DNA of 64,000 bases from Candidatus Aminicenantes bacterium (lineage in GTDB: Bacteria > Acidobacteriota > Aminicenantia > Aminicenantales > JAFGBC01), in NCBI GenBank assembly GCA_963702005.1, contig OY969696.1, positions 1,536,001 through 1,600,000 of the forward strand, given 5' to 3'. How positions within the stretch are numbered: position 1 is the first letter of the stretch; each line of letters starts with the position of its first letter. A program made the translations under genes and the position numbers. This document shows, piece by piece, positions 4,649 to 34,709 of this stretch. The notes under the pieces are model-generated. The model saw only the letters and a list, made by a program, of their open reading frames with translations, was not told the origin of the DNA and made no database searches.

Positions 4649-4712
4649 AAAATTGTGGCCCTTGGAAGACGATTTGCGATAAATCTTAATCCGAAGACCG
4701 GTTAAGAGCTTA

Positions 4713-7062: not shown

Positions 7063-7228
7063 TAGATTGTAGGAACACTCGGAAGATCCAAGCGCTCAAT
7101 ATTGAATTGGAGAACTAAACAAAAGGATTACTTTTGTCTAGTTACTGAAAGTTTACTTTTAATTCTGATGGAAGTCAAGCTTTTTTGATGCCAACTAATA
7201 AAAAGCCTTTATTGCTCAATTCTCAAAT

Positions 7229-7825: not shown

Positions 7826-7931
7826 AGTTAATATTAGCCTTGGAATTTAAAAGTATATATTAAATTGCTCAGTTGTTTAAAAAAATCCTTGACGAATCCT
7901 AAATATGCCCCGGCGACTTGTAGCGAGTTGA

Positions 7932-14162: not shown

Positions 14163-14171
14163 GCAATCAAA

Positions 14172-15050: not shown

Positions 15051-15053
15051 TTC

Positions 15054-15920: not shown

Positions 15921-15924
15921 TAGC

Positions 15925-18120: not shown

Positions 18121-20311
18121 ATGGGTCTATTCAAAAGAAAGGGAATACAGCTTTTTGAAGAACCTGAAGAATCCGCCCTGCCCGAGCAGAAAGTCGAAAA
18201 CAAACCCGTTGAAGAAGAATCCATAACTCAGACCGAAGTTAAGCCCGATAAGGAACCAGAAAAAACTCTTGATCTCGGCTGGTATTATTCCGATAACAAA
18301 GAAGAATTTCAGATTGCGAAAATCGCGGAAAAAGACCGAGCCACGCATTTATACGTTGTCGGAGCTACGGGAACGGGCAAGACGAAATTTCTCGAATACC
18401 TGATTAGCCAGGATATCGAGAAAGGAAACGGCTTCGGGGTCATTGATCCGCATGGCGATTTAATCGAAGACGTTAAAGGCTTTTTGATCCTGCAATACAA
18501 TCCGGACGATCCGGAGATAACGGACAAGGTTATTCTTATCGATCCGACAGATCCGATTTTCACCGTGACATTCAATCCTTTGGAGAAAATGCTTGGCGTC
18601 CCTCTTGCGGAACAGGCAAATGAACTTATCTGCGCTTTCCGAAAAATCTGGTCCGACTTCCTGGGGCGTAAGGATGGAAGACCTGATGCGGAATTCTCTG
18701 ATTGCTCTGGGAGAGGCCGGGTTGACATTAATCGAGCTTCCGGCGTTCCTGAGCGATCGGGCTGTTCGGCAGGGCGTCTTGGAGAAAATCACGCATCCTT
18801 TAGCCAGAGAGTATTTCCGAAGGTTTGATACCGTGACCGACCGGGGCCAGATCACCTGGATCGAGCCGGTAATGAATAAAATCAATGCCTTTTTCTCAGA
18901 TGAGAGAATTAGGCATATTTTTTCCTCCGCGAAAAGCTCTTTCAACCTTAGAGAGATCATGGATTCACAAAAAATCCTACTGATCAAGCTCGATAAGGGA
19001 AAATTGAAGGATTCGGCCGACCTTCTCGGCTCGCTTCTCATGGCCCAAATCCAGATGGCCGCGTTCTCAAGATCAGACGTTCCCCAGGGCAAACGAACTA
19101 CGTTTTATTTGTATATCGACGAATTCCAGAATTTTGCCAGCGAATCGTTCTCCGTAGTATTGTCCGAAGCCCGCAAGTACGGGCTTTCTTTAATCATGGC
19201 TCATCAGACGCTCGCTCAGGTTCCCGAAGAATTAAGAAGCTTGATCTTGGGGAATGCCGGAATCCAAGTCTATTTCCGGCTTAATCGCCACGATGCCTCG
19301 ATTCTCGCCAAAGAAGCTTTCGAGTATTCGGGATTCGAAGTGAAGAACGTCAGCGGGTTCAAGCCTCGATACTGGAGTCTTGGCGAAGAATGGGAGCAGC
19401 ATACTAAAGACCTTCAGACCTTAGAGCCGAGAATCTGCTATGTGAAGCATAAAGTCGAAGGCGGAGTGATTCCCGTCCAGACGGCCTATATCGAAACTGC
19501 CCAGGAGGTTTTCGTCGAATTATTAGGGCGGGCTGAAGATGAGTATCTCAAATGGTTTGGAACGATTCCTTTTGGCCGGAAATACCTCGTGGAGCGGGGA
19601 AAACTTGATGCCGAAAGCAGAGCGAGAGAAGCGGAGGTTCAAGGGAAAGCCAAGCCGTACCAGAAAGAGACGCCGTACCGAAAAGAACCAGCACCGGCAA
19701 AGCCTGTGCCGAAAGCAGAATTACCGGCCGGAGGAAGGGTAATTGACGTAGAATCCATCGTAGTTCTGCCTAAAATAGAACTCCCGCCCCCAAAGGATAA
19801 AGCCGTATCTCAGCATCGGTATCTTCAAAATCTCATTAAGAAGATAGCGGAGGATAAAGGATACAAAGCGTCTATTGAGCAAACGATTCTTAACGGCGCA
19901 GGGAAGATTGACGTAAGCTTAGAAAAAATGGGGAAGAAAATCGCTTGTGAAATATCTATTACTACAAGCGGCGATCAGGAGCTAAAGAATATCGATAAAT
20001 GCCTTTCCGCTGGATATAAACAAGTGGTTCTTTGCTCGCCCGACCAAAAGACATTAGAGAATGTGCGAACCTTGGCTTCTCAGAAGCTGGGTCAAACTGA
20101 TCTGCTAAAAGTATTATTTTTCAAGCCCGAAGATCTCTTTTATTATTTAGAAAAAGAAGCGGCAGCCGAAGCATCGAAGGAAGCGCGGGTGAAAGGATAT
20201 AAGGTCAAAGTTCAGTATCAGCCCGTTAAAGAATCCGAGAAGAAAGCCAAGCGAGAAGCCGTGGCCCAGGTCATCCTTCAGGCGATGAAGAGGATGAGGG
20301 ACAAAAAATGA
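18121..20311 (+). pseudogene. VirD4/TraD/TrwB-like coupling ATPase with a single frameshift near 18658; C-terminal PD-(D/E)XK-like domain
   Basis: HLYVVGATGTGKT (Walker A), IDPHGDL and FNPL in the first frame; SWGVRMEDLMRNSL, LYIDEFQNF (Walker B), SEARKYGLSLIMAHQ and ILGN in the second; removing one T in GACTTCCTGG joins them. Confidence 0.85.
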
Positions 20312-20475
20312 CTATTGCTGCAAAAATTCAAAATATGGTTTGTGAAATCGTCGAATCGAAAATATATTTTCTATTTCCCCCTAGTAAGACGACTAAATAT
20401 ATAAAAGGGAGAAATATATAAAATTGGAATATGGTTAGAAATCGCACATTATTATAGCAAAAAGGAGGTAAGACA

Positions 20476-20763
20476 ATGGCAACTCTCCACGAGGTGAAAT
20501 GCGTGAACAAGAGTGATAGGGATAATCCGCATGAGCGGATTCTCTCTATTGGCGGGCTTAATAGTGACGGAACCAGATGGAAATTAAAACAAGAGGAGGC
20601 TATTAAGGGAATTGAAGAAGGGAAATGGTCATTTTACGTCACCAAGAACGGGAAGACGGTCAAAGTCATAGTTGCTACAAGTAGGTTTGGACATAAGTAT
20701 TTAAAAACCGAAGCTGATGGAGAACAGCCGAATAACCTGCTAAGTCTTCCTGAATGTCTTTAA
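20476..20763 (+). CDS. DUF3892 domain protein
   Basis: NPHERILSIGG...EEAIKGIEEG...FYV...KYLKTEADG...NNLLSLPEC; AGGAGG RBS. Confidence 0.85.
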   Translation: MATLHEVKCVNKSDRDNPHERILSIGGLNSDGTRWKLKQEEAIKGIEEGKWSFYVTKNGKTVKVIVATSRFGHKYLKTEADGEQPNNLLSLPECL

Positions 20764-21046
20764 TTAGCAGTTTAATCTATGAGTGTCCAACATATGATTA
20801 TATCGGCAAAGCTAAATGAGATATAAAACTACATGAAATATGTAATCACGTGCAACCTGAGAATAGCTGATTAACTTTTTTACCTAAAATGTCGAAATTC
20901 ATCGTTAAAGGCTATCCAGCGCCAGGAGGCGGGGCTAAGCAGCGATTAATTTGGACGAAAAATGTCCACTCACTGAATTAAAGCCAAGAAAGAAGATAGT
21001 TATATCGCAAAAATGAATTCATAGTCCATAGATTTGAGGAGGGGGA

Positions 21047-22942
21047 ATGAGCCATATTGCTTCAAAGGAAAGTAAGTTAGAAAAAATACTGAATTACTTA
21101 CTCGAAGGTTTCCAGATTATTAGATTTGACTGGCGCTATTTATATGTCAATGATGCCGTTGCCAGGCAGGGGCGTATGACAAAGGAAAGACTGCTGGGCA
21201 AAACAATGATGGAAGCATATCCGGGAATAGATAAAACGCACATGTTCAGTGTGCTCAGAAGATGCATGGAAGAACGGACTTCAGCTTTTTTAGAAAATGA
21301 ATTCACTTTTCCAGACGGCTCTAAAGGTTGGTTTGAACTCAGAATGGAGCCCGTGCCAGAAGGTATTTCTATACTCTCTATTGAGATTAGTGAACGCAAG
21401 AAAGCGCTGGAAAGAAACGAGGAAATCGGCGAGCGATACCAAACGCTATTTGGCCGTTCAATGGACTGTGTCTATCTTCACGATTTCGAAGGAAGATTTA
21501 TCGATGCCAATCGTGCTGCTTTAGATCTCTTGGGCTACAGTATTGGGGAGTTTACATCTCTTAATTTTGCGTCTTTATTGACTCCAGACCAAATTCCAAC
21601 GGCACTTAAAGCCATAGAAGAAATTAAGAGAATTGGTTTCCAGAAAGATGTATCTGAATTTAGATTAACTAAAAAGAATGGCGAAAACATTTTTGTAGAG
21701 ACTAATGGATCTCTTATATATCGTGAGGGTCAACCTTATGCCATCCAAGGAATCGCCAGAGATATCACCAGCAGAAAGAAGATGGAAGATGAGTTAAGAA
21801 GGGTCAATCGTGCGCTCAAGACACTCAGTAAGTGTAACGATTCTGTAATCCGTGCTACAGATGAGAAATGTCTGCTGCAGAGCATCTGTAGAGATATTGT
21901 CGATATCGGAGGATATCGTTTAGCCTGGGTCGGATTCGCTGAACACGATGAAAAGAAATCTGTTCGGCCCATAGCTCAAGTCGGATATGAAGAAGGATAT
22001 ATCGAAACTTTGAACATCACGTGGGCAGATACAGAGCGGGGTCGAGGCCCGACCGGCAGGGCTATAAGAAAAGGCAAGCCTTCCATTGCCAGAAGAATCT
22101 TAACCGATCCCGATTTTGAGCCATGGAGAAAAGAAGCAGCAAAGCGGGGATATGCCTCATCTATCTCTCTTCCTTTATTCGCCAATGGCCTGTGCTTTGG
22201 AGCATTGAATATTTACTCTGTCGAACCGGATGCCTTTGACGATGAGGAAGAAAAGCTTCTTATAGACCTGGCGGATGATTTGGCCTATGGCATTGTTACG
22301 CTCCGCATGCGGGCTGAAGGAAAACGGGCAGAAGAAGAACTAAAGCATACGCTCGAAATGCTACGAAAAACTCACGGAGCGACTATTCAAGCCATCAATA
22401 GGATAGTTGAAAACAGAGATCCCTACACAGCCGGCCATCAAAGACGCGTCGCCGATCTTGCCCGGGCCATCGCCACTGAAATGAATTTATCAAGGCATAC
22501 CATCGATGGAATACGCGTTGCTGCCCAACTTCATGATCTAGGAAAAATATCTGTTCCATCCGAAATTCTCAGTAAGACGGGCAAGCTAACTGAAGCTGAA
22601 TATAGCTTGATAAAAAATCACCCCAAAGTTGCTTATGAAATATTGAGGACCATTGAATTCCCCTGGCCGATCGCTGATATTATTCTGCAGCATCATGAAA
22701 GAATGGATGGTTCAGGATACCCCCTGAGCTTAGCTGGTAATGATATATTAATAGAGGCAAGAATAATCGGGGTGGCTGATGTTGTTGAAGCAATGGTTTC
22801 TCACCGTCCCTATAGACCCGCCCTTCAATTAGAGGATGCTCTTAATGAAATATCTCAGAAGAGCGGCGTATTATATGATCCGAACGTGGCAGACGCTTGT
22901 ATAAGGCTTTTAAAAGAAAAAGATTTTCATTTCAGGGCATAA
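21047..22942 (+). CDS. PAS-PAS-GAF-HD-GYP phosphodiesterase
   Basis: Two PAS domains, a GAF domain (GRGPTGRAIR), DPYTAGHQRRV, HDLGKI, HHERMDGSGYP. Confidence 0.93.
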   Translation: MSHIASKESKLEKILNYLLEGFQIIRFDWRYLYVNDAVARQGRMTKERLLGKTMMEAYPGIDKTHMFSVLRRCMEERTSAFLENEFTFPDGSKGWFELRMEPVPEGISILSIEISERKKALERNEEIGERYQTLFGRSMDCVYLHDFEGRFIDANRAALDLLGYSIGEFTSLNFASLLTPDQIPTALKAIEEIKRIGFQKDVSEFRLTKKNGENIFVETNGSLIYREGQPYAIQGIARDITSRKKMEDELRRVNRALKTLSKCNDSVIRATDEKCLLQSICRDIVDIGGYRLAWVGFAEHDEKKSVRPIAQVGYEEGYIETLNITWADTERGRGPTGRAIRKGKPSIARRILTDPDFEPWRKEAAKRGYASSISLPLFANGLCFGALNIYSVEPDAFDDEEEKLLIDLADDLAYGIVTLRMRAEGKRAEEELKHTLEMLRKTHGATIQAINRIVENRDPYTAGHQRRVADLARAIATEMNLSRHTIDGIRVAAQLHDLGKISVPSEILSKTGKLTEAEYSLIKNHPKVAYEILRTIEFPWPIADIILQHHERMDGSGYPLSLAGNDILIEARIIGVADVVEAMVSHRPYRPALQLEDALNEISQKSGVLYDPNVADACIRLLKEKDFHFRA

Positions 22943-23012
22943 TGATGAGCTGCGATATATGAGAGCTACAATTGCAAGTGTTAAACAAAGTTCGCGGCAC
23001 AAATTAAATAGA

Positions 23013-23262
23013 CTATTTTAAAGATGTCATAAAAAAAGTAATTGTATCTGAAGGCTTCTTCGCAGGCTTATGTAAGTTTCTCTCCCACCCCGCAAGTGTC
23101 GTTGGATCAACTCCCAATTGCTCCGCCATCTTTTTCTGTGTCAGCCCGTGAACCCGCCGATATTCACGAATCCTTTCTCTTAAATTATCTGTCTTTATTT
23201 CGAACGGATCACGTCCCAGAGATTCGATTATTTCCGGAATTTGAGCCAAAGAGGCTTGAACT
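23013..23262 (-). pseudogene. XRE double-HTH repeat, copy A (5' truncated)
   Basis: SLAQIPEIIESLGRDPFE...IREYRRVHGLTQKKMAEQLGVDPTTLAGWER matches the intact copy at 28789-29232. Confidence 0.85.
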
Positions 23263-23524
23263 GTTTGCATGGTTTGAGGCAAATTGGGAGCACATAAAGG
23301 ACATAGTGGAGCGAACGGTTTTGATTTGGCTGCGTCCCTGGAACGTCCCCGGAATTCTGGGATCCCAGGTCGTTCTCTGCGCACAAAGGTGCCGGCTGTT
23401 AGCAAAAGGGGGGTTTTGATGGGAACCATCAAGGTGGGGGCTTTCTCCAACCGGCGAAAGAAAGCCATAAATATTATATCACAAGTCCGCGTGAAGAGGG
23501 TGAAGTCCGAGCCTCATCACGTGT

Positions 23525-23750
23525 CTATTCTTCAGGCGAAGAAAGATAGGTTTCGAGCTTTTCAAATAGCCTATTCGTGGGCCGATGCTCCCCTCTCTCC
23601 CACCCTGCCAGAGTTGTCTGATCGACCCCCAACTGTTCAGCCAACATCTTCTGGGTCAGCACATGAACCCGCCGGTATTCTCGAATCCTTTCTCCCAGAT
23701 TCTCTGTTTCTTTCTCAAAAGGGTCGCGGCCCAGAAACTCGGTGATCTTG
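23525..23750 (-). pseudogene. XRE double-HTH repeat, copy B (5' truncated)
   Basis: KITEFLGRDPFEKETENLGERIREYRRVH.LTQKMLAEQLGVDQTTLAGWERGEHRP. Confidence 0.85.
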
Positions 23751-23779
23751 GTGACGCTGAGGTCCACAAGTGATCACGG

Positions 23780-23910
23780 GAGAGTCGTTCTTCCCAAAGG
23801 GTCTTACGATAGCGGGCGTTTTACGTAGTGATGCAAACAACGGTGAAGAACCGGCTCCAGGCGTTTTTGGCCCAGCAGGGGGAAGAGATACGCTCAGAGG
23901 TATCGCGGGT
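23780..23910 (+). mobile_element. Probable IS110-family transposase fragment
   Basis: RVLR*RAFYVVMQTTVKNRLQAFLAQ resembles the IS110 LRxR..LV...T..KNR helix; in-frame stop. Confidence 0.5.
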
Positions 23911-24005
23911 GGAGAACCTTCCCGCCCCTCAGACATACGACATATTCCCGCTGACCTCCAAAAACATCATGGCGGAATGGAGGGCAGACCAGGAGAGCGA
24001 TCGTT

Positions 24006-25382
24006 TTATACGTTCTTTATCCTGAGCTTTGAAACCTTGCTTTCATTGAGAACAATGGGTATTCCTTTTATCCTTCCATTTCGCTCAATGGTCACATCAA
24101 CTTTTTTGCCCCATTTGCCATTCATAATGTCTTGCCTGATTTTGTTAAACTCAGGGATGCTCTTGATGGTCTCTTTTCCCACCTTAATGACCCGATCATT
24201 AACTAATAAACCGGCGTTTTGAGCGCTTGAACCATAAGATATCCAATTCACATAAAACTTCCCTTCCTTTTCGTAAAGATCAAATGAAAAATCTAGGACG
24301 ATCTCTTCAAATGGTTCCAATTGATCAAGCAGGGAAAGAATTTCGGGGAAAAAGGATTCATAGGTGGGGAATTTCGACCTATTCTTTTCGTAATCACCCA
24401 ATTTTTCGTAGATAAAAGGGATGAGCAGAAAGGGAGTGTGTCCTCCCTCCCACTTGTCTTTGGGTGTCTGTCTCGTGACGTATTTATAGATTCTTGTCGT
24501 TGCCGCTCTGACAATATTCTCATTCAGACAGCTTCCCCATGTGGGATAATAAAGCTTCGTCATCACGTCATCTTGGTTTAACGTTTTGAATAGCCATTCT
24601 CTCTTGGCCACTTCAGATTGAAATTTGGCGGTGACGGGGTTGACGAACGAATGGCCAAATTCGTGGATGGCTCCACCGATCAAATCCTTGCCACTCGTCT
24701 GGTCATAGCTGGCTGAATCCGGGGGGACAGGCGTCGGGCTGATGACAGAATATCTGACCTTATGTTCTTCAAGTTCAGGGGACCCAAACAAGAATCCGGC
24801 TGGAGTGAGGAACGAGACATAGATATTAAATCTAAATTCTGGCTTAGATTGACCAAAATAATCTTCAAGGGGCTTTCTTACCGAAATTTGAGCAATCTCT
24901 TGATTAAACCTTTCAGCTACTCTCGCGTACTCATTGACGTGTTCTTCCCAGAATTTTTCAAAATGCGTGTCTTGATAAAAGTCTTTCACCGCCTTGGCAA
25001 AGTCCTCCAGAATCTTAGAATTACCAATTTCCAGGCCAATGTTCTGCGGAAATTTGCTGACGGTGAGGTCAGAAATGCTCCGGAACGAAAGGGCAAGGCC
25101 AGGGAAACGATCCAAGAAAATGTGATCGAGAATTTCGTCGGCTATCTGAACGGCTTTGTGATTTTTGTAGGATTCAAAGTATTCTAGGGCACTCCTTCGG
25201 ATAGGATGGACAAATTGGGCTTGTTGGGAACTGCCGTGGGGAGTCAGAATTCCAATACAGGTGAGCAATTCTATGCGTTCATCAAAGCTCACCACCACTT
25301 CATTTTGGGAATGGCCAGAGATCGTCATGAAAAATATCAGGAATACTAGAAGAGTTAAAATATGCTTGCTTTGCTTTTTCAT
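24006..25382 (-). CDS. Secreted DUF4932-like metallopeptidase with C-terminal PDZ domain
   Basis: Signal peptide, DERIELL, FYQDTHFEKFW, HEFGHSFVNP, NENIVRA; PDZ motif GSSAQNAGLLVNDRVIKV. Confidence 0.8.
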   Translation of the reverse strand: MKKQSKHILTLLVFLIFFMTISGHSQNEVVVSFDERIELLTCIGILTPHGSSQQAQFVHPIRRSALEYFESYKNHKAVQIADEILDHIFLDRFPGLALSFRSISDLTVSKFPQNIGLEIGNSKILEDFAKAVKDFYQDTHFEKFWEEHVNEYARVAERFNQEIAQISVRKPLEDYFGQSKPEFRFNIYVSFLTPAGFLFGSPELEEHKVRYSVISPTPVPPDSASYDQTSGKDLIGGAIHEFGHSFVNPVTAKFQSEVAKREWLFKTLNQDDVMTKLYYPTWGSCLNENIVRAATTRIYKYVTRQTPKDKWEGGHTPFLLIPFIYEKLGDYEKNRSKFPTYESFFPEILSLLDQLEPFEEIVLDFSFDLYEKEGKFYVNWISYGSSAQNAGLLVNDRVIKVGKETIKSIPEFNKIRQDIMNGKWGKKVDVTIERNGRIKGIPIVLNESKVSKLRIKNV

Positions 25383-25505
25383 CCACTCAATATATTATTT
25401 TATATCATAATGATATTTAAAAGCATTATATTATTAGTATAAAATAATACCTCCAGGCAGTGTCAACTCTTATTCGCAATTTCGGGGGCCGAGGAGCCAA
25501 AAAGG

Positions 25506-25714
25506 TTAGTGAAAATAAGCAAGTAATTTGGCCAAATTATCAACAAGTTTCTTCGAGGGCTGATGTTCTCCTCTTTTCCACCCCGCTAGGGTCGATTCCG
25601 ATTTGCTCGGCAAATATTTTTTGCGATACCCCATGAACCCGTTGATAATCCCGAATCGTATCTCGTAGGCTTCTTGAAGTGACCTCAGACGGATCGCGGC
25701 TCAGGAATTCGATC
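25506..25714 (-). pseudogene. XRE double-HTH repeat, copy C (degenerate; not in the ORF track)
   Basis: IEFLSRDPSE...IRDYQRVHGVSQKIFAEQIGIDP / LAGWKRGEHQPSKKL, with a small deletion frameshift. Confidence 0.75.
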
Positions 25715-25943
25715 ATAAGGCAATGATTCCTTAGCTCGATTTATTTCTTATAGATGCATCTCTGGTGTGGACCTCCTTGATCTAAATGCAAGCTATTAGG
25801 TAACTTTTTTCTTATAAAAAGAGTCTTATAAAGGAGAAGATATTATTAGGAGTCACGCAATGCGAACCAGGCCGCTCATTTCTATATTGTTTATTTTTCC
25901 TGGGGTGGAAAATATAGGCCCGATAAAGCAATTGCATTCCATA

Positions 25944-27848
25944 ATGAGGCGAATTCTCATTTCTATCATGCTTTTAATATCCAGTTTAAATAACCCAGGT
26001 ATTTGCAAAGATCAAAAACCGTGTTCGATAAAATCTCATAATCTTAAGATAGAGTTTAACTCCGATATTCATGAGATGAGAGTAGTCGATAAAATCTTTT
26101 TATCTGAAAATTGGAATAAGAATTCTCCTTTCCTAGCTAAAATTGACTCTCTCTTCTTGATTTCCAGCATTTGTTCACAAGAAGGAAGGCCCGTGGCCTA
26201 TAAATATCAAGACGGCAAACTTGAAATACCGAGTCTGGCTGGAATGGAGAGCTTCACTGTCGAATATTCGGGCGTTCTTAATACGGATTTGAGAAGCGAT
26301 CCCTTTGCCAAAGTGGCTGGTTCATTTTATCTTCTGAAGGAGCTCGATTGGATTTTTACTCCTGCGGGCACTGAAGCAGAAAAGGCCGTTATGGAGTATC
26401 GTATTCCTAAGGAATTTGACATCATCACAGAAGGTCACCCGGTCAGTGAAAGGGTCATAGGCGACAAAAAAATAAGCGTCTGGGAAGTGGATGGGTGCGA
26501 ATCGTGGTTGTACTGCATGATAGGCAAATGGCATAAGACGAACAGGAAAGTCGGTCAATCTGAAGTTAGAGTCTGGCTGGCCTCCCATAAACCGGAATTG
26601 GCGGAAAAGCTTGTTGAAACAATAGAGAAAATCTTCTGTTTCTATTCAGAGATCTACACTGCTTATCCGCGTCCCGACTTTACTTACCTGGAATTTCCAA
26701 ACGATTATGCGGCCTGGAATGGCTATCTGAAAGTGGTTTTTATGCGCGAATCCGCAACTTGGGGAATTCCAGACGATATTGAATTTGTGGCCCACGAGAT
26801 AGCTCATAACTGGTGGCCCAACTACATCGGTTTGAAAAGGGATGAAGAACTCGACCTTGATGGCGAAGCGTTTTGTGACTTTTCTGCCGCGCTGGCCAAT
26901 GAATTTCTGTTCGGCTCAGTAAAAAAGCAGGAACGTGCAAAAGAATTGGTATGGTTCATGGCCTATCCAGAAGAGAAATATCGAAAAGGCAAGTTTCTTC
27001 TGCACAATCTTAGACTGATTTATGGGGATAAACTATTTTTCAAGTGGGTTAAAGACTTTTCTGAAAGATATAAAGGAAGAAGAACAAGCACAGAGGATTT
27101 CTTTGCTATGGCTCCTCGGAAAGAAGGATTTGATTTGAATGGATTCCTGGCAACTTGGAAGGAGGTTAAGATCCTTCCTGTTTTCGAGCTACAATATGAT
27201 AAAAAGAAAATGAAATCGGGAAACCGGTATGAGATAACGATAAGTATTCATCAACAGCCGAATCCGCCGATTATTGGGTGGCATATCCCCGTTCTTGTTC
27301 GCTCAAAAGACACGGAAGTTCAGAAACTCGTGGAATTAACTGGGGAAGTTACAAAAAGTCGCTTGGAGACGGAGTTTGAACCTGAAGAGGTTTTGCTCGA
27401 TCCAAATTATATAATTCCCAGGCGAGTGCCAGAATTTCAAAAGTATGCCGAAGCCCTGATTTTAATAGACGCCAAGGCATTCCCGCTTATCTTCAAGAAG
27501 AATTTTCAAGACTGCCTCCCCTTTCTATTTCAGGCCCTGGAACTGGACACGGAAAATGCCGAAACACACTACCTCATCGGGAGGGCATACAAGAATCTTA
27601 ATCAGCCAGACAAGGCAAAAGAGTTTTTTTCCACGGCGACTGCCAAAATCCTTGGCTGGTATATGGGGAATCGTTACACGACGGACCAGCTCCATGTTTA
27701 TTCTCTTTGGGAATTGGCCCAGATCTTTCTCAAAGAAGGGAATTATGCTTTAGCTCGGAAAAACCTCGAAGCGATATTAATAAAGCCCGACATTGAAGGT
27801 TATCACGCAAAAGCATCAGATGAGCTAAAGAAGATCAAGAATATCTAA
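25944..27848 (+). CDS. Secreted M1-family (gluzincin) aminopeptidase-like protein with C-terminal TPR
   Basis: HEIAHNWW plus downstream EAF, KGKFLLHNLRLIYGD, LDP.Y.I, TPR helices; start chosen at the signal peptide MRRILIS. Confidence 0.82.
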   Translation: MRRILISIMLLISSLNNPGICKDQKPCSIKSHNLKIEFNSDIHEMRVVDKIFLSENWNKNSPFLAKIDSLFLISSICSQEGRPVAYKYQDGKLEIPSLAGMESFTVEYSGVLNTDLRSDPFAKVAGSFYLLKELDWIFTPAGTEAEKAVMEYRIPKEFDIITEGHPVSERVIGDKKISVWEVDGCESWLYCMIGKWHKTNRKVGQSEVRVWLASHKPELAEKLVETIEKIFCFYSEIYTAYPRPDFTYLEFPNDYAAWNGYLKVVFMRESATWGIPDDIEFVAHEIAHNWWPNYIGLKRDEELDLDGEAFCDFSAALANEFLFGSVKKQERAKELVWFMAYPEEKYRKGKFLLHNLRLIYGDKLFFKWVKDFSERYKGRRTSTEDFFAMAPRKEGFDLNGFLATWKEVKILPVFELQYDKKKMKSGNRYEITISIHQQPNPPIIGWHIPVLVRSKDTEVQKLVELTGEVTKSRLETEFEPEEVLLDPNYIIPRRVPEFQKYAEALILIDAKAFPLIFKKNFQDCLPFLFQALELDTENAETHYLIGRAYKNLNQPDKAKEFFSTATAKILGWYMGNRYTTDQLHVYSLWELAQIFLKEGNYALARKNLEAILIKPDIEGYHAKASDELKKIKNI

Positions 27849-27904
27849 TTGTTTGATCCGCTAGCGTATAGCAATGTTTGCTCTAGAGGAGGAGCGATCG
27901 TAGA

Positions 27905-28038
27905 CTCTGGAAACCGGCTTTTTTGTCCTTAAGGCTAAATAGCAGAAAAGCATCACGACCCTGCGAGGAGGTTCTGCGTGCGCCGGGACGATCCGGAAAG
28001 GTCCGGGGCGACTCGCGGACGCGTACTGGCCGCCCGCG
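27905..28038. repeat. Copy D: XRE 5' end / comM junction plus collapsed comM remnant
   Basis: ctggaaaccggctttttt...taaggctaaatagcagaaaagcatcacgaccctgcgaggagg matches 29183-29248; tggccgcccgcgagcgtcagctc matches 29433-29456. Confidence 0.85.
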
Positions 28039-28100
28039 AGCGTCAGCTCCGCCGATTCTGCATGTGATATAATATCTTGGGAAGCGAGTGGGTAGTGGAC

Positions 28101-28643
28101 ATGAGAAAAAGAGGATTGTTTTCAGCCGGCCTCATCCTTTTCCTGTGGGCCGGACTCCTGGCCCCCGCTCCGAACGATTTTCCTAAAAAGACGCCAGGAA
28201 AGGAGCAGCCGCAACGGCCGATATTTTATGCCCTCCAGGTCGTTTGCGAAAAGGACGTCCAAAACTCAAGAGATTCGCTGGGTGCGCCGGATGGCCGCTC
28301 TGCGGAGATCCTTCCGGGCGGCGGGCTCGTCGTGCTCATGGAGAAAAAGCTTTATCCCTTCCCGAGTTCCCCCTCGCCGGAGGGAGAAGGAGGACTGGCG
28401 GAAAGCGGCTCAGTAGTTGGCAAAGGAGGGCCGGACTTCATCCTCGAAGGCTGGTTCCTAGTACAGGATACGCAGGCCAAGCACCGCTATGTCTGGGTGC
28501 CTCTAGGATTGTCGGCGGGCGGCTTTTGCGTCGGGCTTGAAGGCAGTGAGGGTGTGAACATGATCAGGATCACGAACCCAGGCAACAAATCCTTGTTTGT
28601 GGACGCCGTAGTCGGACGCGGCAGGGAAACACAAGGAAGATAG
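28101..28643 (+). CDS. Secreted hypothetical protein
   Basis: Signal peptide MRKRGLFSAGLILFLWAG; LGAPDGRSAEI and VDAV beta-rich motifs. Confidence 0.65.
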   Translation: MRKRGLFSAGLILFLWAGLLAPAPNDFPKKTPGKEQPQRPIFYALQVVCEKDVQNSRDSLGAPDGRSAEILPGGGLVVLMEKKLYPFPSSPSPEGEGGLAESGSVVGKGGPDFILEGWFLVQDTQAKHRYVWVPLGLSAGGFCVGLEGSEGVNMIRITNPGNKSLFVDAVVGRGRETQGR

Positions 28644-28788
28644 AAGGCACTAGCCGCCCTTGCCAGCGGCACCCTTGACTTTCCCGCGCTCGAGGATGCC
28701 AAGAAGAAGCTGGCGGCGCTGAAGTGAATGTGATTTCTTCATAGGGACTTATAGCCGCATCGAGATTATCTACCATCCCAAGCCTCGA

Positions 28789-29232
28789 TTAAATTTGAGT
28801 TTGAAATAGCTCAATTCCGGTCAATTTTTCAAGAAACCTTTTCATCGGCCGATGCTTCCCTCTCTCCCATCCCGCCAACGTCGTCTGATCAATTCCTAAT
28901 AGAGTAGCAAATTTCTTCTGCGTCAGCCCGTGGATCCGCCGGTATTCCCGAATCTTTTCGCCTAAATTCTCTGTCCTTTTCTCAAACGGATCGCAGCCAA
29001 GGAACTCGATAATCTTAGGAATCTGGGCTAGAGACGGCTGGACTCGGTTCTTTTCCCAAAGATATATCGTGAGGTCCGAAACATTAAGCTTTAGGGAAAG
29101 TTGGCGCTTGGTGAGCTTCAAATCAATCCTTCGGGCTCTAATCCAGTCGCCCCACGTCTTCATAAAATCAGGGTATTTCTCCCTGGAAACCGGCTTTTTT
29201 GCCTTTAAGGTTAAATGGCAGAAAGGCAACAC
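28789..29232 (-). CDS. XRE double-HTH regulator, copy E (intact)
   Basis: LPFCHLTLKAKKP...YP...WGDWIRARRIDLKLTK...IYLWEKN plus a second HTH IREYRRIHGLTQK...TTLAGWERG. Confidence 0.88.
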   Translation of the reverse strand: MLPFCHLTLKAKKPVSREKYPDFMKTWGDWIRARRIDLKLTKRQLSLKLNVSDLTIYLWEKNRVQPSLAQIPKIIEFLGCDPFEKRTENLGEKIREYRRIHGLTQKKFATLLGIDQTTLAGWERGKHRPMKRFLEKLTGIELFQTQI

Positions 29233-29711
29233 AACCCTGCGAGGAGGTCCTGCGCGGGCTGGCCGGGACCGGGGTCGAATGCACGGAGAGCCAACGGCGG
29301 CGCTACTACTCCAAGATCTCCGGCCCGCTCCTCGACCGTATCGACATCCTCATCGAAGTCCCCGCCGTCCGCTTCCACGAGGTCGTGGGGCGCGTTGAAA
29401 CCGAGAGCTCAGAAAAAATTCGAGCCCGCGTTGTGGCCGCCCGCGAACGTCAGCTCGGCCGCTTCCGGAAGAAGCGGATCTTCGCCAACGCCCACATGGG
29501 GCCGCGCGAGGTCAGGGCCCACTGCCGGGTGGACGGGGAAGGGGAGAGGCTCCTGGAGGCGGCGATTAAAAGGCTGGGGTTAAGCGCGAGGGGCTACGAC
29601 CGGGTCCTCAAGGTCGCCCGGACCATCGCTGATCTGGCGGGTGAAGAGGCGATTTCCCCCGCTCATTTGAGCGAAGCCATCCAGTACCGCATGATGGACA
29701 GGTACCCGTGA
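29233..29711 (+). pseudogene. comM: 3' fragment of comM (YifB family Mg-chelatase-like AAA+ ATPase)
   Basis: PC...RYYSKISGPLLDRIDI, SSEKIRARVVAARERQ, LSARGYDRVLKVARTIADL, HLSEAIQYR; starts abruptly at the (N)PC motif; GC-rich like the core. Confidence 0.92.
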
Positions 29712-29863
29712 TTCCCTCCCCTATTCAGGTGAGAAAAGCTCCCCATAAATCACCCCTTCAATCATTCTTAGTGGTGATTTACTTATTTTAAATTAAACTA
29801 TATAAATAATATTTAGATTTCATTATCTAGCAAAGGAATCAAGTCTATGAAAGGGTTACTGAA

Positions 29864-31675
29864 GTGGGAACGACTGGAGCTAAGTACAAGTTAACTGAGG
29901 AAGTACTTCGAGATAAAGAGAGTATATATAATTTCCTTTTGGATAATTCAAAAGGGATTATTCTCATCCTTAGCAGAAGAGGGAAAATACTTTTTGCCGA
30001 TAAAACCATCTTAGACAACTTTGGTTATTCTGAAGAAGAAATAGCCGGCAAATCAATCACAAGTTTCTTAACGAAAGATAGCATCACGAGGGCATTATAT
30101 GCTCTTGCGCAAGAATTTCTTGGTCAGCCTCAACCAGAGATGGAAGTTCGAGCTAAGACGAAATCTGGTGAAATAAGATATTTAAAAGTCGCCAAGGGCT
30201 CATCCCCTATTTATGAAGAAGGCAAATTGATTGGGGTAATGGTTAGCGCCAGCGACATCACTGATTCCAAGAAAGCCGAGAAAGAGCTGGGGGAAAGCGA
30301 GCAACGCTTCAAGGAATTGTGGGATAATGCCCCTGTTGCCTATCACATATTGGATGCCAAAGGGATTATCACTAATGTAAATCAAACCGAAGCGAAAATG
30401 CTCGGATATGCCAAGGAAGAAATGACAGGGAAATCAATATTCGAATTTATTTTGCCTGATCAGAAAGAAGAAGCAAAAAAACGATTTCAACACAAGATGT
30501 CCGGTCGGCATGTCCCAAAAGCAGGTAACAGGATATATGTTAAAAAAGATGGTTCAAAGATTTATGTTGATATCGATGAGGTATTGGAACGAGATTATGA
30601 CGACAAGATCATCGGTGTCCGGACAACGATGATTGATATTACAAAACAAAAAGAGACAGATGCGGGTTTAAAGACATCGATGGAACTTTATAGAGACCTG
30701 GTTGAAGGGGCGGGTGTCGCTATTCTAGTTGATGACAGAGAAGGAAGTTCCAAATATATAAATGAAAAATATGCTGAGATTTTCGGATACTCTGTGGAGG
30801 AGATAAAAAAACAATCTATTCGATCGATTGTTTATCCTGATGATGTTGAGAGAGTACTAGCCTATCATACAAGACAAATTCAGGGTAGCGAGACTCACTC
30901 CAAATATGAATTTAGAGGAGTCAAGAAGGATGGAACTGTCATATATCTTGAAGTGGCATCAATTGCCTTAAAAGAAGGGGAAAACATTGTGGGAACTCGC
31001 TCATACCTATGGGATATTTCCGAGCGTAAGACGACAGAAATGGAACTAAAAAATGTTCTGGAGACGCTGCGTAAAGCTATGGGCGCAACTGTTCAAGCCA
31101 TTAGCAGGCTCGTCGAAATGAAGGACCCTTATACTGCTGGGCATCAAAGACGCGTTGCTGACCTTGCTCGTGCAATAGCCAAAGAAATGGGGCTTTCGAA
31201 TGACCAAATCGATGGTATTCGTGTTACAGCATTAATTCATGATATAGGCAAAATATCTATTCCGGCCGAAATCCTCAGCAAGCCAGGTCGATTAACAGAA
31301 GTAGAATTCAATATGATTAAGACTCACCCACAATGTGGTTATGAAATATTAAGATCAATAGAATTTCCATGGCCCGTTGCTCAAATTGTTCTTCAGCATC
31401 ATGAAAGGATCGATGGATCAGGTTATCCATCAGGCATATCAGACAAAGAAATTACCCAAGAAGCAAAAATATTGGCAGTAGCGGATGTTGTTGAAGCCAT
31501 GATCTCTCACCGACCTTATCGACCAGCTCTCGGCATAGATAAAGCCCTCGAGGAGATATCTAAAAATAGTGGGGTTCTTTTTGATCCTAAGGTGGTAGAA
31601 GTTTGCACAAACCTTTTTGTCCAGAAAGGCTTTAACTTCAGAAAACAGAAAAATCTGTCAGTTTTGCCTTATTAA
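29864..31675 (+). CDS. PAS-PAS-PAS-HD-GYP phosphodiesterase
   Basis: Three PAS/PAC domains; DPYTAGHQRRV, HDIGKI, HHERIDGSGYP. Confidence 0.93.
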   Translation: MGTTGAKYKLTEEVLRDKESIYNFLLDNSKGIILILSRRGKILFADKTILDNFGYSEEEIAGKSITSFLTKDSITRALYALAQEFLGQPQPEMEVRAKTKSGEIRYLKVAKGSSPIYEEGKLIGVMVSASDITDSKKAEKELGESEQRFKELWDNAPVAYHILDAKGIITNVNQTEAKMLGYAKEEMTGKSIFEFILPDQKEEAKKRFQHKMSGRHVPKAGNRIYVKKDGSKIYVDIDEVLERDYDDKIIGVRTTMIDITKQKETDAGLKTSMELYRDLVEGAGVAILVDDREGSSKYINEKYAEIFGYSVEEIKKQSIRSIVYPDDVERVLAYHTRQIQGSETHSKYEFRGVKKDGTVIYLEVASIALKEGENIVGTRSYLWDISERKTTEMELKNVLETLRKAMGATVQAISRLVEMKDPYTAGHQRRVADLARAIAKEMGLSNDQIDGIRVTALIHDIGKISIPAEILSKPGRLTEVEFNMIKTHPQCGYEILRSIEFPWPVAQIVLQHHERIDGSGYPSGISDKEITQEAKILAVADVVEAMISHRPYRPALGIDKALEEISKNSGVLFDPKVVEVCTNLFVQKGFNFRKQKNLSVLPY

Positions 31676-31749
31676 TCATTTATGACATTTCAAACCATTT
31701 TTTTCACTGTTTCTGTGAATAAGTTTATTGAAAAAGAGGAAATTCCTTT

Positions 31750-32128
31750 CAAAGAAATATTGCCATTTGGTCAAGGTTCAGTGTCGGCCTTTTCCCACCC
31801 TGCCAGCGTGGTCTGGTCGACTCCCAACTGTCCGGCCATCTTTTTCTGTGTCAGCCTATGAGCTCGCCTATATTCCCGAATTTTATCTCCTAAATTCTCC
31901 TTTTCTTTTTCAAACGGATCACGGCCAAGGAACTCGATGATCTTCGGAATCTGGGCCAAAGACGGCTTGACCTTGTTCTTTTCCCAGAGATATATCGTGA
32001 CGTCCGAAACATTAAGGTTGAGGGAAAGTTGGCGCTTAGTGAGCTTCAAATCCAGCCTCCGGACCTTGATGTAGTCGCCCCACGTCTTCATAAAATCAGG
32101 GTATTTCTCCCTGGAAACCGGTTTTTTC
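31750..32128 (-). pseudogene. XRE double-HTH repeat, copy F (frameshifted near the 3' end)
   Basis: MKTWGDYIKVRRLDLKLTKRQLSLNLNVSDVTIYLWEKNKVKPSLAQIPKIIEFLGRDPFE..., very similar to copy E. Confidence 0.88.
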
Positions 32129-32132
32129 GTCT

Positions 32133-32200
32133 TCGAGGTCGGGGCCTACTGCCGGGTGGACAGGGAAGGGGAGCGGCGATCCAGTACCGGATGCTGGACA
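32133..32200 (+). pseudogene. Collapsed comM 3' remnant marking the island right edge
   Basis: gaggtcggggcctactgccgggtggacagggaaggggag matches 29508-29546; atccagtaccggatgctggaca matches 29679-29700. Confidence 0.8.
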
Positions 32201-32257
32201 AAGCTTAATTTGGTACAATGACTGTCTCGACCGTTGTCATAGGGAGGCAGCAGCGCC

Positions 32258-33736
32258 ATGATCGATCGTCGATGGCTCCTGGGGATCGTCTGCGGAATGG
32301 GGATCGCGATTGCGGGTCAGGCCGCTCCGGTTCGCGACGGGGATGCCATCCCGGTCAAGCCGGCCAAGCTCACGCCGCAGAAGAAAGAAGCGCTCTACTG
32401 GATCGACGCGGCCCTCCCCGAACTCAACCGGATGAACGACGAGATCTGGCGGGCGGCCGAGCTCGCCCTCGAAGAAAAAGAATCGGCCGAAATCCTCGTT
32501 TCGTTCCTTGAGAAGAGCGGATTCAGAATCGAACGGGGCGTCGCCGGCCTGCCTACGGCCTTCGTCGCGACCTGGGGGCAGGGCGAGCCCGTCATCGGCG
32601 TGCTTGGCGAGTACGACGCGCTTCCCGGGCTGTCGCAGGAAGCCGTGGCCTTCAAGAAGCCGTTGGCCGAGGGGAAACCCGGCCACGGCTGCGGCCATAA
32701 CATCTTCGGCGTCGCCAGCGTTGCCGCCGCGGCGGCCCTCAAGCACGTCATGGAAAGCGGCAAGCTCGGAGGGACGATCAAATTCTTCGGCTGCCCCGGC
32801 GAGGAAACGGTGACCGGCAAGGTGTTCATGGCCCGGGAGGGCGTCTTCAACGGCCTGTCCTGCTGCATCCAGTGGCACCCGGGCGGCGAAACCGAGGTCT
32901 CGCTCGACTCGTCGAACGCCCTCAACCAGTTCGAGGTCGAGTTCTTCGGCCGGTCCGCCCATGCCGCCGGCGACCCCTGGGACGGCCGGAGCGCCCTGGA
33001 CGGCGTCGAGCTCGCCGACGTGGGACTCAACTTTCTCCGCGAGCACCTCAAGCCCACGGCCCGGATTCATTACGTCATCGTCAACGGCGGCGGCGCTCCC
33101 AACGTCGTCCCCGACTATGCCCGGGCCTGGTACTATGTGCGAGACTTGGATCGGGACGGCGTGGAGAAGGACTACGCCCGGGTGCTCGACGTCATCGACG
33201 GCGCGGCCAAGATGAGCGGAACGACCTATAAAATCCGTTTCATCAGCGGCGTCCATGAAGTCCTGCCCAACAGGTCCGGCGCGGAAGCGGTCTACGCCAA
33301 CCTTCTCCTAGTCGGGGCGCCCGCCTTCAGCCCCGAGGAGCAGGCTTTCGCCAAGGAGATCCAGAAGAACTTGGGCGTCGCGGAAAAGGGCTTGAAGACG
33401 GGGATCGAGCCGTTCCGCGAGCCGGAAAAAAGCTGGGGAGGCGGCTCGACCGACGTGGCCGAGGTGAGCTGGCTGACGCCGACGACCTCGCTGTCCGTGA
33501 CCAGCGAGCCCGAGGGAACTCCCGGGCATCATTGGGCGGTCGTGGCCTGCGCCGGAACCTCGATCGCCCACAAATGCCTTCAGACAGCGGCCAAGATTAT
33601 GGCGGCGACCGGGCTGGATATGCTCCAAAGCCCGGCCCTCCTCAAGAAAATGAAGGACGAGTGGGCGGCGAAGACTAAAGGGAAGCCCTACATTTCGCCC
33701 CTGCCCCCGGACTTAACGCCTCCCGTCAAGAATTAA
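32258..33736 (+). CDS. M20 amidohydrolase (AbgB-like) with signal peptide
   Basis: EYDALPGLSQ, GHGCGHN, GCPGEE, WHPG, GRSALD, GGSTDVAEVSW. Confidence 0.92.
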   Translation: MIDRRWLLGIVCGMGIAIAGQAAPVRDGDAIPVKPAKLTPQKKEALYWIDAALPELNRMNDEIWRAAELALEEKESAEILVSFLEKSGFRIERGVAGLPTAFVATWGQGEPVIGVLGEYDALPGLSQEAVAFKKPLAEGKPGHGCGHNIFGVASVAAAAALKHVMESGKLGGTIKFFGCPGEETVTGKVFMAREGVFNGLSCCIQWHPGGETEVSLDSSNALNQFEVEFFGRSAHAAGDPWDGRSALDGVELADVGLNFLREHLKPTARIHYVIVNGGGAPNVVPDYARAWYYVRDLDRDGVEKDYARVLDVIDGAAKMSGTTYKIRFISGVHEVLPNRSGAEAVYANLLLVGAPAFSPEEQAFAKEIQKNLGVAEKGLKTGIEPFREPEKSWGGGSTDVAEVSWLTPTTSLSVTSEPEGTPGHHWAVVACAGTSIAHKCLQTAAKIMAATGLDMLQSPALLKKMKDEWAAKTKGKPYISPLPPDLTPPVKN

Positions 33737-33740
33737 TGGC

Positions 33741-34709
33741 TCAGCGCCCTTTGAGCGAAGCCTTCCAGGCGTTGTACCAAACGTTGAGGAGGCTTACGAA
33801 CTCGGCGCTGGCCTTCTTCCCGCCGGCGGCCGTCGGATGGCTGTCGTCCGAGCTCGAGCCGTAGGCGCTGTAATTATTGGCCACGGTCTGGATGTGCTGA
33901 ATGGCTCCGTTCCGGAAGCGGTGGTGGTTGCCGGTCGCCTTGCCCAGGTCGTTCTTGTTGACATTCCCGCCGTTCGAGGTCAGGACGTTATAGAAATCGA
34001 AAACGGCGACGTTTTTGTAGGGGCAGTTTTTGAGCCAGCTCTTGACGAGCCAGTCGTTGACGGCCCGGGCGTTGGCGGCGTGAGCCGCGTCGGTCGCGTC
34101 CTCGACGAGGGGCGGGGAGGCGATCAGGATGAACAATTTGTCCTGCCGGGTTTTAAAATAGACGAGGAGGTCGTTGTAGATCCCCTTGACGTTGGCGACC
34201 TTCATGTAGGGCGAGCTCGAATCCTGGCCGCGCAGCGGGTTGCTGCCCGTCTTGGGCGGGTCGCCGGGTTTTCCCCCGATCTGGGAATTGGGGAAGCAGG
34301 ACTTGAACATGATGATCGTGTTCTCTCCGCCCGGGTCGGCGGCCAACCGGGTGTAATCGCAGTTCTGGCCGCTTTCCTTGAAAAGGGCGTTGAGGTAGGT
34401 CGTCCGCTTGGCGGCGCGGAACCAGAGCCACCACTGGCCGGTGTCGGTCTTGTCGCCGATCGCGTCAGGTCCCCAGCCGTAGTTCGTGTCGCTCACGAAG
34501 TAATTATTGTTCTTGAGGGTGATCCCCAGCCGTCCCCCGTAGTCCACCAGCCAGCCTTCGCCCGTCGAGTGGTGGATGAAAATGAGCTTGACCGGCTTCG
34601 CCGGGGGCCGCGGCGAGAGGGCTTCCGGGCCGCTTCCGGCCGAAGCTAGGACGGCGCCGCCGCTGAGGATAAGGATCATGGCTAAGATTGTCAGGAAGCG
34701 CTTGGGCAT
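33741..34709 (-). CDS. Secreted hypothetical protein (SGNH-like)
   Basis: Signal peptide; LIFIHHSTG, IMFKSCFP, VFDFYNVL, DDSHPTAAG. Confidence 0.7.
   Translation of the reverse strand: MPKRFLTILAMILILSGGAVLASAGSGPEALSPRPPAKPVKLIFIHHSTGEGWLVDYGGRLGITLKNNNYFVSDTNYGWGPDAIGDKTDTGQWWLWFRAAKRTTYLNALFKESGQNCDYTRLAADPGGENTIIMFKSCFPNSQIGGKPGDPPKTGSNPLRGQDSSSPYMKVANVKGIYNDLLVYFKTRQDKLFILIASPPLVEDATDAAHAANARAVNDWLVKSWLKNCPYKNVAVFDFYNVLTSNGGNVNKNDLGKATGNHHRFRNGAIQHIQTVANNYSAYGSSSDDSHPTAAGGKKASAEFVSLLNVWYNAWKASLKGR

Follow-up and report, generated by a model that had tools for sequence, protein, structure and literature searches.

A cassette-like array of accessory genes lies at 21.0–32.2 kb of a 64,000-nucleotide stretch (hereafter the window) from the genome of a Candidatus Aminicenantes bacterium (GenBank assembly GCA_963702005.1, contig OY969696.1, positions 1,536,001 to 1,600,000). 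It forms the right end of an integrative element of 58.6 kb and low guanine-plus-cytosine (GC) content, which was inserted into comM by a large serine recombinase (LSR). Accessory genes, mostly single, sit between its repeats, which contain a gene or gene remnant for an XRE-type helix-turn-helix (HTH) regulator, 3'-terminal sequence of comM, or both. The array is probably a stack of right-end units of one LSR element family, which are gained and dropped via alternative attR sites and reshuffled by homologous recombination (HR). It had been noted in a preliminary description made from the letters of the window alone; the list of open reading frames (ORFs), Pfam and self-BLASTN confirm that it is real, with gene order, cargo content and a single orientation of the repeats as described there.

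The element in comM and the anatomy of its right-end units

The genome holding the window (G000) is a single contig of 4.31 Mb; the comparison set comprises 246 genomes from 68 genera of the order (G and L labels denote genomes and loci). The low-GC island of 58.6 kb has about 40% GC, with about 63% on both sides, and extends from genome position ~1,509,600 to window position ~32,200. The left end of the element was located at G000:C1:1509576, 26.4 kb left of the window. About 27 kb left of the window, a 359-aa ORF at the low-GC boundary represents the 5' part of comM (ChlI and positions 1–162 of the 207 positions of Mg_chelatase) and abuts a 501-aa LSR (L001:5518–7023, minus strand) with Resolvase (4.4e-31) and Recombinase (4.2e-18) domains in Pfam. 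The LSR ORF is full length and shares 77–81% amino acid identity with its relatives over residues 4–501. Its best NCBIfam matches are CcrB (134 bits versus a cut-off of 900) and XisF (121 versus 375); the CcrB score is far below the cut-off and the protein is thus not an orthologue of Ccr or Dsi. The 3' part of comM is found within the array, as an ORF of 170 codons (29199–29711, plus strand) with Mg_chelatase positions 155–205 and Mg_chelatase_C.

The features of the array and its flanks are as follows; repeats are lettered A to F from left to right.

20476–20763, plus strand: DUF3892 gene (Pfam), cargo of the current element
21047–22942, plus strand: PAS-GAF HD-GYP phosphodiesterase 1 (Pfam), cargo of the current element
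23013–23468, minus strand: repeat A, XRE-HTH, the current element's own XRE gene; XRE-like only at 23037–23261 (aa 64–138 of E)
23525–23767, minus strand: repeat B, C-terminal XRE fragment (aa 71–137 of E), no junction remaining
23759–23914, plus strand: scrap of an IS110-family transposase (TBLASTX to three other loci of the genome)
24006–25382, minus strand: DUF4932-PDZ protein (Pfam), cargo
25530–25716, minus strand: repeat C, XRE scrap (aa 74–144 of the family, 48–52% aa identity)
25860–27848, plus strand: M1-peptidase-like protein with TPR repeats (Pfam), cargo
27907–28058, plus strand: repeat D, attR-type junction, XRE gene deleted
28077–28643, plus strand: conserved hypothetical protein, 188-aa ORF, cargo
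28789–29232, minus strand: repeat E, complete XRE gene with two HTH domains (Pfam, NCBIfam)
29166–29239, plus strand: P arm of attR E; its last two bases are the crossover TG (29238–29239)
29240–29711, plus strand: displaced complete comM 3' end (E)
29864–31675, plus strand: PAS HD-GYP phosphodiesterase 2 (Pfam), cargo
31720–32139, minus strand: repeat F, near-complete XRE gene (aa 8–147, one internal TGA) and outer P arm; HTH ORF in Pfam at 31771–32091
32134–32200, plus strand: comM 3' scraps of F, running straight into the native intergenic region, then the M20 gene
32258–33736, plus strand: M20 peptidase gene (Pfam), high-GC core flank

The proposal of one integration site in comM is borne out by two genomes of the same genus. 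In G001, 44 nt separate an intact comM from the M20 gene downstream, which defines the empty site, and G002 likewise has comM directly followed by M20. The identity of G001 to G000 is 84.4% for comM 3' E and 84.5% for the M20 gene, and comM 3' E as a whole is 83–84% identical to the comM 3' end of G001. Only CCCTG is common to attB (from G001), attL, attR E and attR D in an alignment; the crossover was placed there, with the insertion point at a TG dinucleotide near codon 345 of comM. The P arm (...GGCAACACAACCC) has its mirror image about TG in the reverse-complemented P' arm (...GCAACGCAACTA), as judged by eye and without a statistical test, which can be read as the usual attP layout of LSRs. 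Joining attL and attR E in silico yields an open ComM of 506 aa with 443 of 505 residues identical to that of G001.

Five XRE-HTH copies on the same strand (A, B, C, E and F) and a sixth junction, D, lie at 23.0–32.2 kb of the window. The preliminary description had counted six repeats of an XRE-HTH/comM-junction unit; D lacks the XRE part and consists only of the element-side arm and comM 3' scraps. The XRE copies are all encoded on the minus strand and share 67–82% identity with each other in self-BLASTN. Repeat A matches B (77% over 148 nt), E (74% over 182 nt), F (77% over 181 nt) and C (68% over 127 nt); B matches E (77% over 191 nt), F (80% over 152 nt) and C (67% over 121 nt); and E matches F with 82% over 348 nt. 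The homology between D and E is confined to the stretch from the XRE start to comM (86% over 80 nt) and to a comM scrap (87% over 39 nt), and the comM scrap of F is 91% identical to E over 44 nt. No further copy of E or F (BLASTN) or of the XRE protein (TBLASTN) was found in the 4.31-Mb genome outside 23037–32177, the sole exception being the first 60 aa of ORF A, a non-XRE portion that falls within a dispersed repeat. The repeats are thus confined to the array and linked to comM and cargo boundaries, rather than scattered over the genome.

The elements of G225 (~30 kb) and G216 (~28.5 kb), which belong to other genera, represent the archetype, in which comM 5' and the LSR stand at one end and XRE, P arm and comM 3' at the other. 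TBLASTX shows both to be colinear with the island of G000 between attL and window position 20314; they carry about 2–2.5 kb of cargo between the last backbone block and XRE. In G000, this cargo place is occupied by DUF3892 and HD-GYP 1, followed by XRE A; A is therefore the right end of the present element itself. A 165-nt dispersed repeat (23318–23481), found at least five more times in the genome at 74–84% identity (e.g., G000:C1:3142862–3143029 and the 166407–160560 region), has replaced the N-terminus, the P arm and the junction of XRE A, which means that the element's own attR is lost. The units to the right of A are older than the current element, and in G000 junctions D and E would be the sole remaining possible partners of attL, the attR of A being destroyed.

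A unit consists of a comM 3' end, one or a few cargo genes, the XRE regulator gene and the P arm, without a recombinase, and each right end shows the order XRE, conserved P arm, crossover TG and displaced comM 3' end. As had been noted from the letters, D, E and F carry comM 3' sequence, which BLASTN corroborates; they constitute three attR-type junctions, next to three more decayed XRE ends. D and E end in P arm, TG and comM 3', while the junctions of A, B, C and F are eroded. The units of D and E hold cargo and XRE only, the XRE gene of D itself being deleted. D comprises the P arm (27907–27961), TG (27962–27963) and the first ~40 nt of comM 3', followed by a deletion and a scrap equal to E 29427–29465. 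In F, 32134–32177 equals E 29507–29550 and 32175–32200 equals the last 26 nt of the G001 comM. Both D and F thus carry internal deletions, of 125 nt in F. The 75-nt P arm is conserved across genera and kept at junctions in 11 other genomes.

No backbone-like sequence was detected between the units, since all blocks in common with the archetypes lie left of 20314 (TBLASTX). In G030, G244 and G023, the in-gene and the displaced comM copies are homologous up to the comM stop codon and no further, and the same is seen between E and both F and G001. No shared motif was found at the left boundary of the units, either in the 300 nt behind the comM stop of 59 copies or behind the last backbone gene of three elements, except for orthologous flanks and one 27-nt match of the spacer behind comM 3' E to G234 (E = 0.004). 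The C-terminal tail MDR[YF]Y followed by a stop was considered as a marker of imported comM 3' ends and rejected, since it is the usual native ending in most genomes of the order without an array. Deviating tails give weak hints only; they occur in genus g1 (QDRN in G001, LDKA in F and MDRYP in E, each before the stop) and as MER in G039 and in the fragment G023-f2. Displaced comM 3' fragments often have an open frame of 181–198 codons, which runs from the P arm into comM on the strand opposite the XRE start; a single stop interrupts several others.

XRE E probably starts at an ATG near 29166 that follows a GGGAGA ribosome-binding site recognized by eye. The protein encoded at 28077–28643, earlier called secreted, has a hydrophobic, signal-peptide-like N-terminus by eye and belongs to a family of hypothetical proteins of ~180 aa (146 hits); its gene has 58% GC and probably starts at the ATG at 28101. 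Pfam and NCBIfam returned no match for this ORF or for ORFs 23284–23745 and 23770–24222. The scrap at 23759–23914, previously attributed to an insertion sequence (IS), is indeed of the IS110 family: it has 46–50% translated identity to three other loci of the genome, and the one match examined (L069:1129–2166) carries DEDD_Tnp_IS110 and Transposase_20.

Recurrence in the order and exchange between genomes

The XRE family is present in 25 of the 246 genomes and 16 of the 68 genera, and the LSR family in nine genomes. Among loci from 21 of the 25 genomes with the XRE family, 24 of the 28 XRE copies with a preserved N-terminus lie directly beside a comM 3' fragment of the opposite strand. In all seven LSR loci fetched (G000, G028, G010, G225, G216, G231 and G229), the LSR adjoins a comM that is cut off at codon 349–359. 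Eight further genomes (G030, G244, G017, G023, G222, G018, G234 and G237) contain an intact comM with units behind it and no LSR match in the locus; there, comM is followed by 2–8 kb of mostly lower-GC cargo and then by XRE genes or scraps, mostly with a comM 3' fragment. Two states are therefore observed, one with the element present and comM split and the other with the element absent, comM whole and units behind it. Both states occur within one genus, in two species with 96% identical comM 5' parts: G010 (L016/L038) has the LSR element in comM, and G023 (L022) has an intact comM, two units and no LSR.

In G023, G229, G024 and G018, two or three units form an array. In line with the preliminary description, the repeats are att-end units that act as carriers of cargo, which differs between relatives. 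The cargo includes MGS-like proteins, an RsgA-type GTPase, an SDH/ClpP-type protease, TPR proteins, an aldehyde dehydrogenase and radical-SAM proteins. Seven other genomes, from four families, likewise have genes of the PAS-HD-GYP type beside XRE/comM 3' units (G023, G018, G243, G010, G223 and G234 among them; loci L022, L034, L036, L038, L039, L041 and L066); these genes vary in orientation and are 40–63% identical in amino acid sequence to the two copies in the window. Of the genomes compared, 226 have comM; by our own count from the table of matches, 36 of the 246 genomes have at least two comM 3' matches, which do not equal copy numbers. Extra comM 3' fragments beside an XRE gene provide a simple annotation marker of the element family.

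Positions 18793–23344 of the G229:C2 locus and 4169–8721 of G018:C10 are 97.96% identical over 4554 bp, although G229 belongs to genus g3 and G018 to genus g14 and another comM 3' copy of G229 is only 72% identical to that of G018. The shared block comprises the 3' end of the intact comM and the 4.1 kb behind it in G018, and in G229 it occupies an inner position of the array, behind the XRE gene and P arm of the next unit or element. Judged by this identity, at least one unit has been transferred between genera. G018 and G223 have another 1031 bp in common, at 92% identity and adjacent to comM scraps. Contigs of a sequencing run under another organism's label span attR E, comM 3' E and the start of HD-GYP 2 with ~91% identity.

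Most comM 3' copies have their nearest relatives within the same genome, with identities of 98% in G030, 89–91% in G023 and 86% in G244. The G030 copies keep the 98% along their full length, tail included, and the two copies compared in G229 are 74% identical, one of them equalling that of G018 at 98%. Several copies are mosaic. In G244, the first window is followed by five (~180 nt) at 88–98% and then by six at 78–81%; in G023, windows of 91–100% are followed by a last one at 58–71%; and between G229 and G018, stretches of ~78%, 97%, 80% and 100% alternate within comM 3' before the cargo reaches 99–100%. Fragment G023-f2 has the tail of its congener G039, including a 6-nt indel, and the other copies of the G023 array differ. 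It was considered as the outermost native copy and rejected, since a further comM tail scrap (L022:16485) adjoins the core flank; G023-f2 is thus an inner copy. Blocks that genomes have in common stop at the conserved XRE flank, and the far end of the G229–G018 block lies ~20 nt past the XRE stop.

Sequencing runs offered a few apparent joints. The joint 29535 to 32163 in run X2 was considered as a relative without the HD-GYP 2 unit and rejected, as the contig shares the 125-nt deletion of F; it is more likely a less-deleted orthologue of F that aligns to E, which gives no evidence on the presence of the HD-GYP 2 unit. The joints 29635 and 29641 to 32175 are too weak, with 24–25 letters on one side. 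Much of 20.5–28.3 kb is uncovered in runs X1–X3 and X5, and X5 lacks the core; nothing was concluded from missing cover.

The remainder of the element within the window contains the following features.

1–20314: right two thirds of the current element, colinear with G225 and G216 (TBLASTX)
3035–4648, minus strand: second LSR, with a zinc-ribbon domain (Pfam)
7229–7825: tyrosine-integrase fragment, 198-aa Phage_integrase ORF (Pfam), 13 kb from the array
11862–17405: inserted ABC transporter, absent from the archetype elements
18121–20311: split type IV coupling protein (T4CP)/FtsK-HerA-like ATPase (Pfam)

The blocks in common with the archetypes include the second LSR, two coupling-protein/FtsK-HerA-like ATPases, DUF932 and a PD-(D/E)XK nuclease. 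The second LSR and the 501-aa LSR are unrelated (no TBLASTN similarity at 1e-3), the zinc ribbon was detected in the second one only, and both are kept in G225 and G216. The two coupling-protein-like ATPases were recognized by weak matches (TrwB_AAD_bind 2.3e-12; TraG-D_C). The ATPase gene at 18121–20311 is represented by two overlapping ORFs (18121–18828 and 18593–20311), which suggests a frameshift in the G000 copy. The ABC region lies between two backbone blocks and is a complete-looking uptake system of the branched-chain type, in which the ORFs scanned were a Peripla_BP_6 binding protein and an ABC ATPase (16686–17405). Candidate defence or addiction genes are found at window 52–2347 (an HTH and Peptidase_M78, IrrE-like protein, then a PF14350 'Beta protein') and at L002:8407–11298 and L002:12512–13039 (a 963-aa AAA_23/SMC-like ATPase and a SocA/Panacea-domain antitoxin-like protein). 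Genes for an ion channel, two radical-SAM proteins and a metallo-beta-lactamase-fold protein follow directly behind the 501-aa LSR (L001:7555–14999, G000:C1:1511555–1518999) and may form a small cargo cluster for peptide modification.

Proposed growth of the stack and rival explanations

The units resemble cis-mobilizable relics, and their stacking can be pictured as a cycle. The LSR, together with a directionality factor, would pair attL with any attR that is still intact. If an inner attR is used, the element would leave, the units would stay, and comM would be re-completed by the comM 3' end of the next unit; if an outer attR is used, the element would carry units to the next host. A re-completed comM would be a fresh attB, at which the next element could enter on the left, so that the stack would grow while older units are pushed to the right and decay. 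The 480-nt comM 3' copies would recombine with one another, as would the XRE copies, with patchy likeness, loss of units and swaps between neighbours as the outcome; deletions and IS activity would erode the older junctions. Because the LSR needs a true attB, the stack could grow only if comM is re-completed.

A bolder version, which is advanced only tentatively, treats the locus as a cassette system on a split host gene, in which the units are portable, the LSR would choose among attR sites and each drop-off would re-complete comM and with it attB.

Several points weigh against a stack built through alternative attR sites. No excision product was observed in the runs, which are contigs, none of them raw reads of this strain, with at most 0.24 of the sampled words. 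LSRs are strict about their sites, and the P arm of D has diverged. No directionality factor was identified, and no relaxase, VirB4 or clear conjugation gene was found among the ~50 backbone ORFs scanned, some short ORFs lying outside the scan; for this reason, the term integrative element is used here instead of integrative and conjugative element (ICE). The scheme accounts for the movement and merging of existing units, but not for the making of one with a new comM 3' end. Candidates for the origin of the founder unit are in-place duplication, one-sided illegitimate recombination, or trimming by deletion until selection on comM stops it. The close within-genome copies need frequent gene conversion, donors of the same species or in-place duplication. 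Finally, the first ~95 nt after TG are only ~78% identical between G229 and G018; near-identity starts inside comM 3' and not at TG, and HR therefore explains this transfer at least as well.

That last observation also belongs to the rival that comes closest, namely that HR acted alone, with comM 3' and XRE copies as homology handles for incoming DNA and the LSR restricted to whole-element reactions (attP with attB, attL with attR). A homology handle had been offered as an alternative in the preliminary description and is upheld in part: identity between comM 3' copies breaks sharply and at differing positions, which gives them a mosaic structure, and the G229–G018 block, divergent next to TG, ends at the conserved XRE flank on its far side. 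However, the comM 3' ends of donor and recipient genera are 20–28% apart, a poor substrate for RecA, and the exact junction of P arm, TG and comM in 24 of 28 units is what a site-specific origin predicts. HR alone would leave the origin of the first unit unexplained as well, and we regard it as unlikely to account for the array. The explanation given in the preliminary description, in which full-length elements integrated successively into comM and each lost its backbone by deletion, leaving a cargo gene and an att end, fares worse. Deletions are indeed frequent in the array, as illustrated by D and F, by the fusion of A and B and by the IS110 scrap. Yet a new integration needs an intact attB, which deletion of a backbone cannot restore, and there are no backbone-derived scraps between the units. 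Moreover, copy homology stops at the comM stop with cargo directly behind it in G030, G244, G023 and E of G000, and eight genomes carry recombinase-less, backbone-free units directly behind an intact comM. Repeated backbone loss is thus an improbable source of the array.

The mutual relatedness of comM 3' copies within genomes, above all the 98% over the full length in G030, would suit tandem duplication of the cargo, XRE, P arm and comM 3' block in place, which provides a second attR; inner excision would then have restored comM, and each array would be of local origin. Neighbouring units differ in cargo, however, XRE copies of one array are only 67–82% identical, and the two G229 copies compared differ by more from each other (74% identity) than one of them does from G018 (98%), which makes this route very improbable for the arrays as a whole. 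An assembly artefact, with repeats collapsed or mis-joined, had nothing found in its favour and hardly deserves credence: the copies are 9–33% diverged, the genome is one contig, and the same architecture recurs in independent genomes, including the single-contig genomes G023, G017 and G222.

Comparison with known systems and biological meaning

The ICESt1/ICESt3-type elements at the 3' end of fda in Streptococcus thermophilus are described as undergoing tandem accretion and as giving rise to cis-mobilizable elements (CIMEs) (PMC5704250). As outlined there, an element stands in tandem with relics that lack recombination and transfer genes but keep their att sites, which likewise applies here (PMC5704250). 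The whole composite can excise and move, resulting in gene capture (PMC5704250), and the stack at comM may behave likewise. According to the same account, these elements use a tyrosine recombinase and att sites with a segment of identity, and entry at a relic att site is possible (PMC5704250). The comM system differs in having an LSR that needs a true attB and in that each unit carries the whole 480-nt comM 3' end. Regarding the features by which CIMEs are recognized, a cognate element with a full-length LSR ORF is present in tandem with the relics, and its own attR is lost. The occurrence of the same unit within the gene in G018 and at an inner position in G229 would lend indirect support to excision and transfer via alternative att sites.

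The ssrA islands of Dehalococcoides, as presented in PMC3146451, lie in tandem downstream of a single-copy gene, with a CcrB-type serine recombinase adjoining attL, and 15 islands without an integration module are read there as possible cis-mobilizable elements. Each is bounded by a repeat of the gene's 3' end and carries strain-specific cargo, similar to the units at comM, but the repeat corresponds to 20 bp of the tmRNA gene and the islands are larger (PMC3146451). At comM, by contrast, the site is inside a protein-coding gene, the full element disrupts this gene and the displaced piece comprises 160 codons; furthermore, a conserved XRE gene marks each right end, and the LSR is not a Ccr/Dsi orthologue.

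SCCmec elements integrate at rlmH (orfX) of staphylococci by means of LSR-type recombinases, at a fixed site at the end of the gene, where tandem elements and pseudo-elements are found. The fixed chromosomal site, the type of recombinase and the tandem arrays are thus shared with comM; SCCmec, however, keeps the rlmH frame and is accompanied by short repeats only, without long gene fragments. The element e14 and phage 21 at icd of E. coli bring a substitute 3' end, the host's own staying downstream as a pseudogene. They are single insertions by a tyrosine integrase, and the substitute end is located on an autonomous element. In contrast, comM is not restored by its full-length element but by the units without a recombinase alone. 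AbaR-type islands in comM of Acinetobacter are Tn7-like transposons inserted at a different site of the gene, which inactivate it; target gene and inactivation are common to both systems, while mechanism and site differ. To our knowledge, stacked comM 3' ends are not known for AbaR-type islands. No comM-targeting LSR element and no account of such an array was found in the literature searched, a search in which 'comM' also matches journal abbreviations and which did not extend to supplements.

The array resembles an integron in that small cargo units, most of them pointing the same way, are collected at one site and vary in content among relatives. An integron-like mechanism, as put forward in the preliminary description, is not borne out. 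No IntI with attI was found next to the array, where the recombinase at the end of the element is an LSR and the only tyrosine-recombinase match is the fragment 13 kb away (7229–7825). No inverted pairs of at least 30 nt were found in 19000–34000 (0 found), and there are thus no attC-type repeats. The cargo is not in a single orientation, as the DUF4932-PDZ gene is on the minus strand and the other cargo genes are on the plus strand. Unlike integrons, the array has no common promoter, and its units carry a regulator gene and a fragment of the host gene. The integron analogy therefore fits the look of the array, but not its machinery. Taken together with the systems above, the array would most likely represent the scheme of accretion and cis-mobilization, adapted at comM to an LSR that needs a true attB.

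The locus illustrates how accessory genes can pile up at a single site even though the serine recombinase of the element requires its target to be intact; in the favoured model, the 3' end in the neighbouring unit completes the target gene anew each time, which lets the stack grow. It also offers a natural test bed for the strictness of LSR site choice among competing attR partners, which is relevant to genome engineering with LSRs. The accessory genes left behind include HD-GYP-type phosphodiesterases for cyclic di-GMP, peptidases and small secreted proteins. ComM is a helicase needed for natural transformation, and the presence or absence of the element would hence toggle transformability. 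If the tentative reading as a cassette system on a split gene is true, comM would be off while the element is present and on once it is gone, and the locus would constitute an integron-like platform for gene capture that works without a dedicated cassette integrase.

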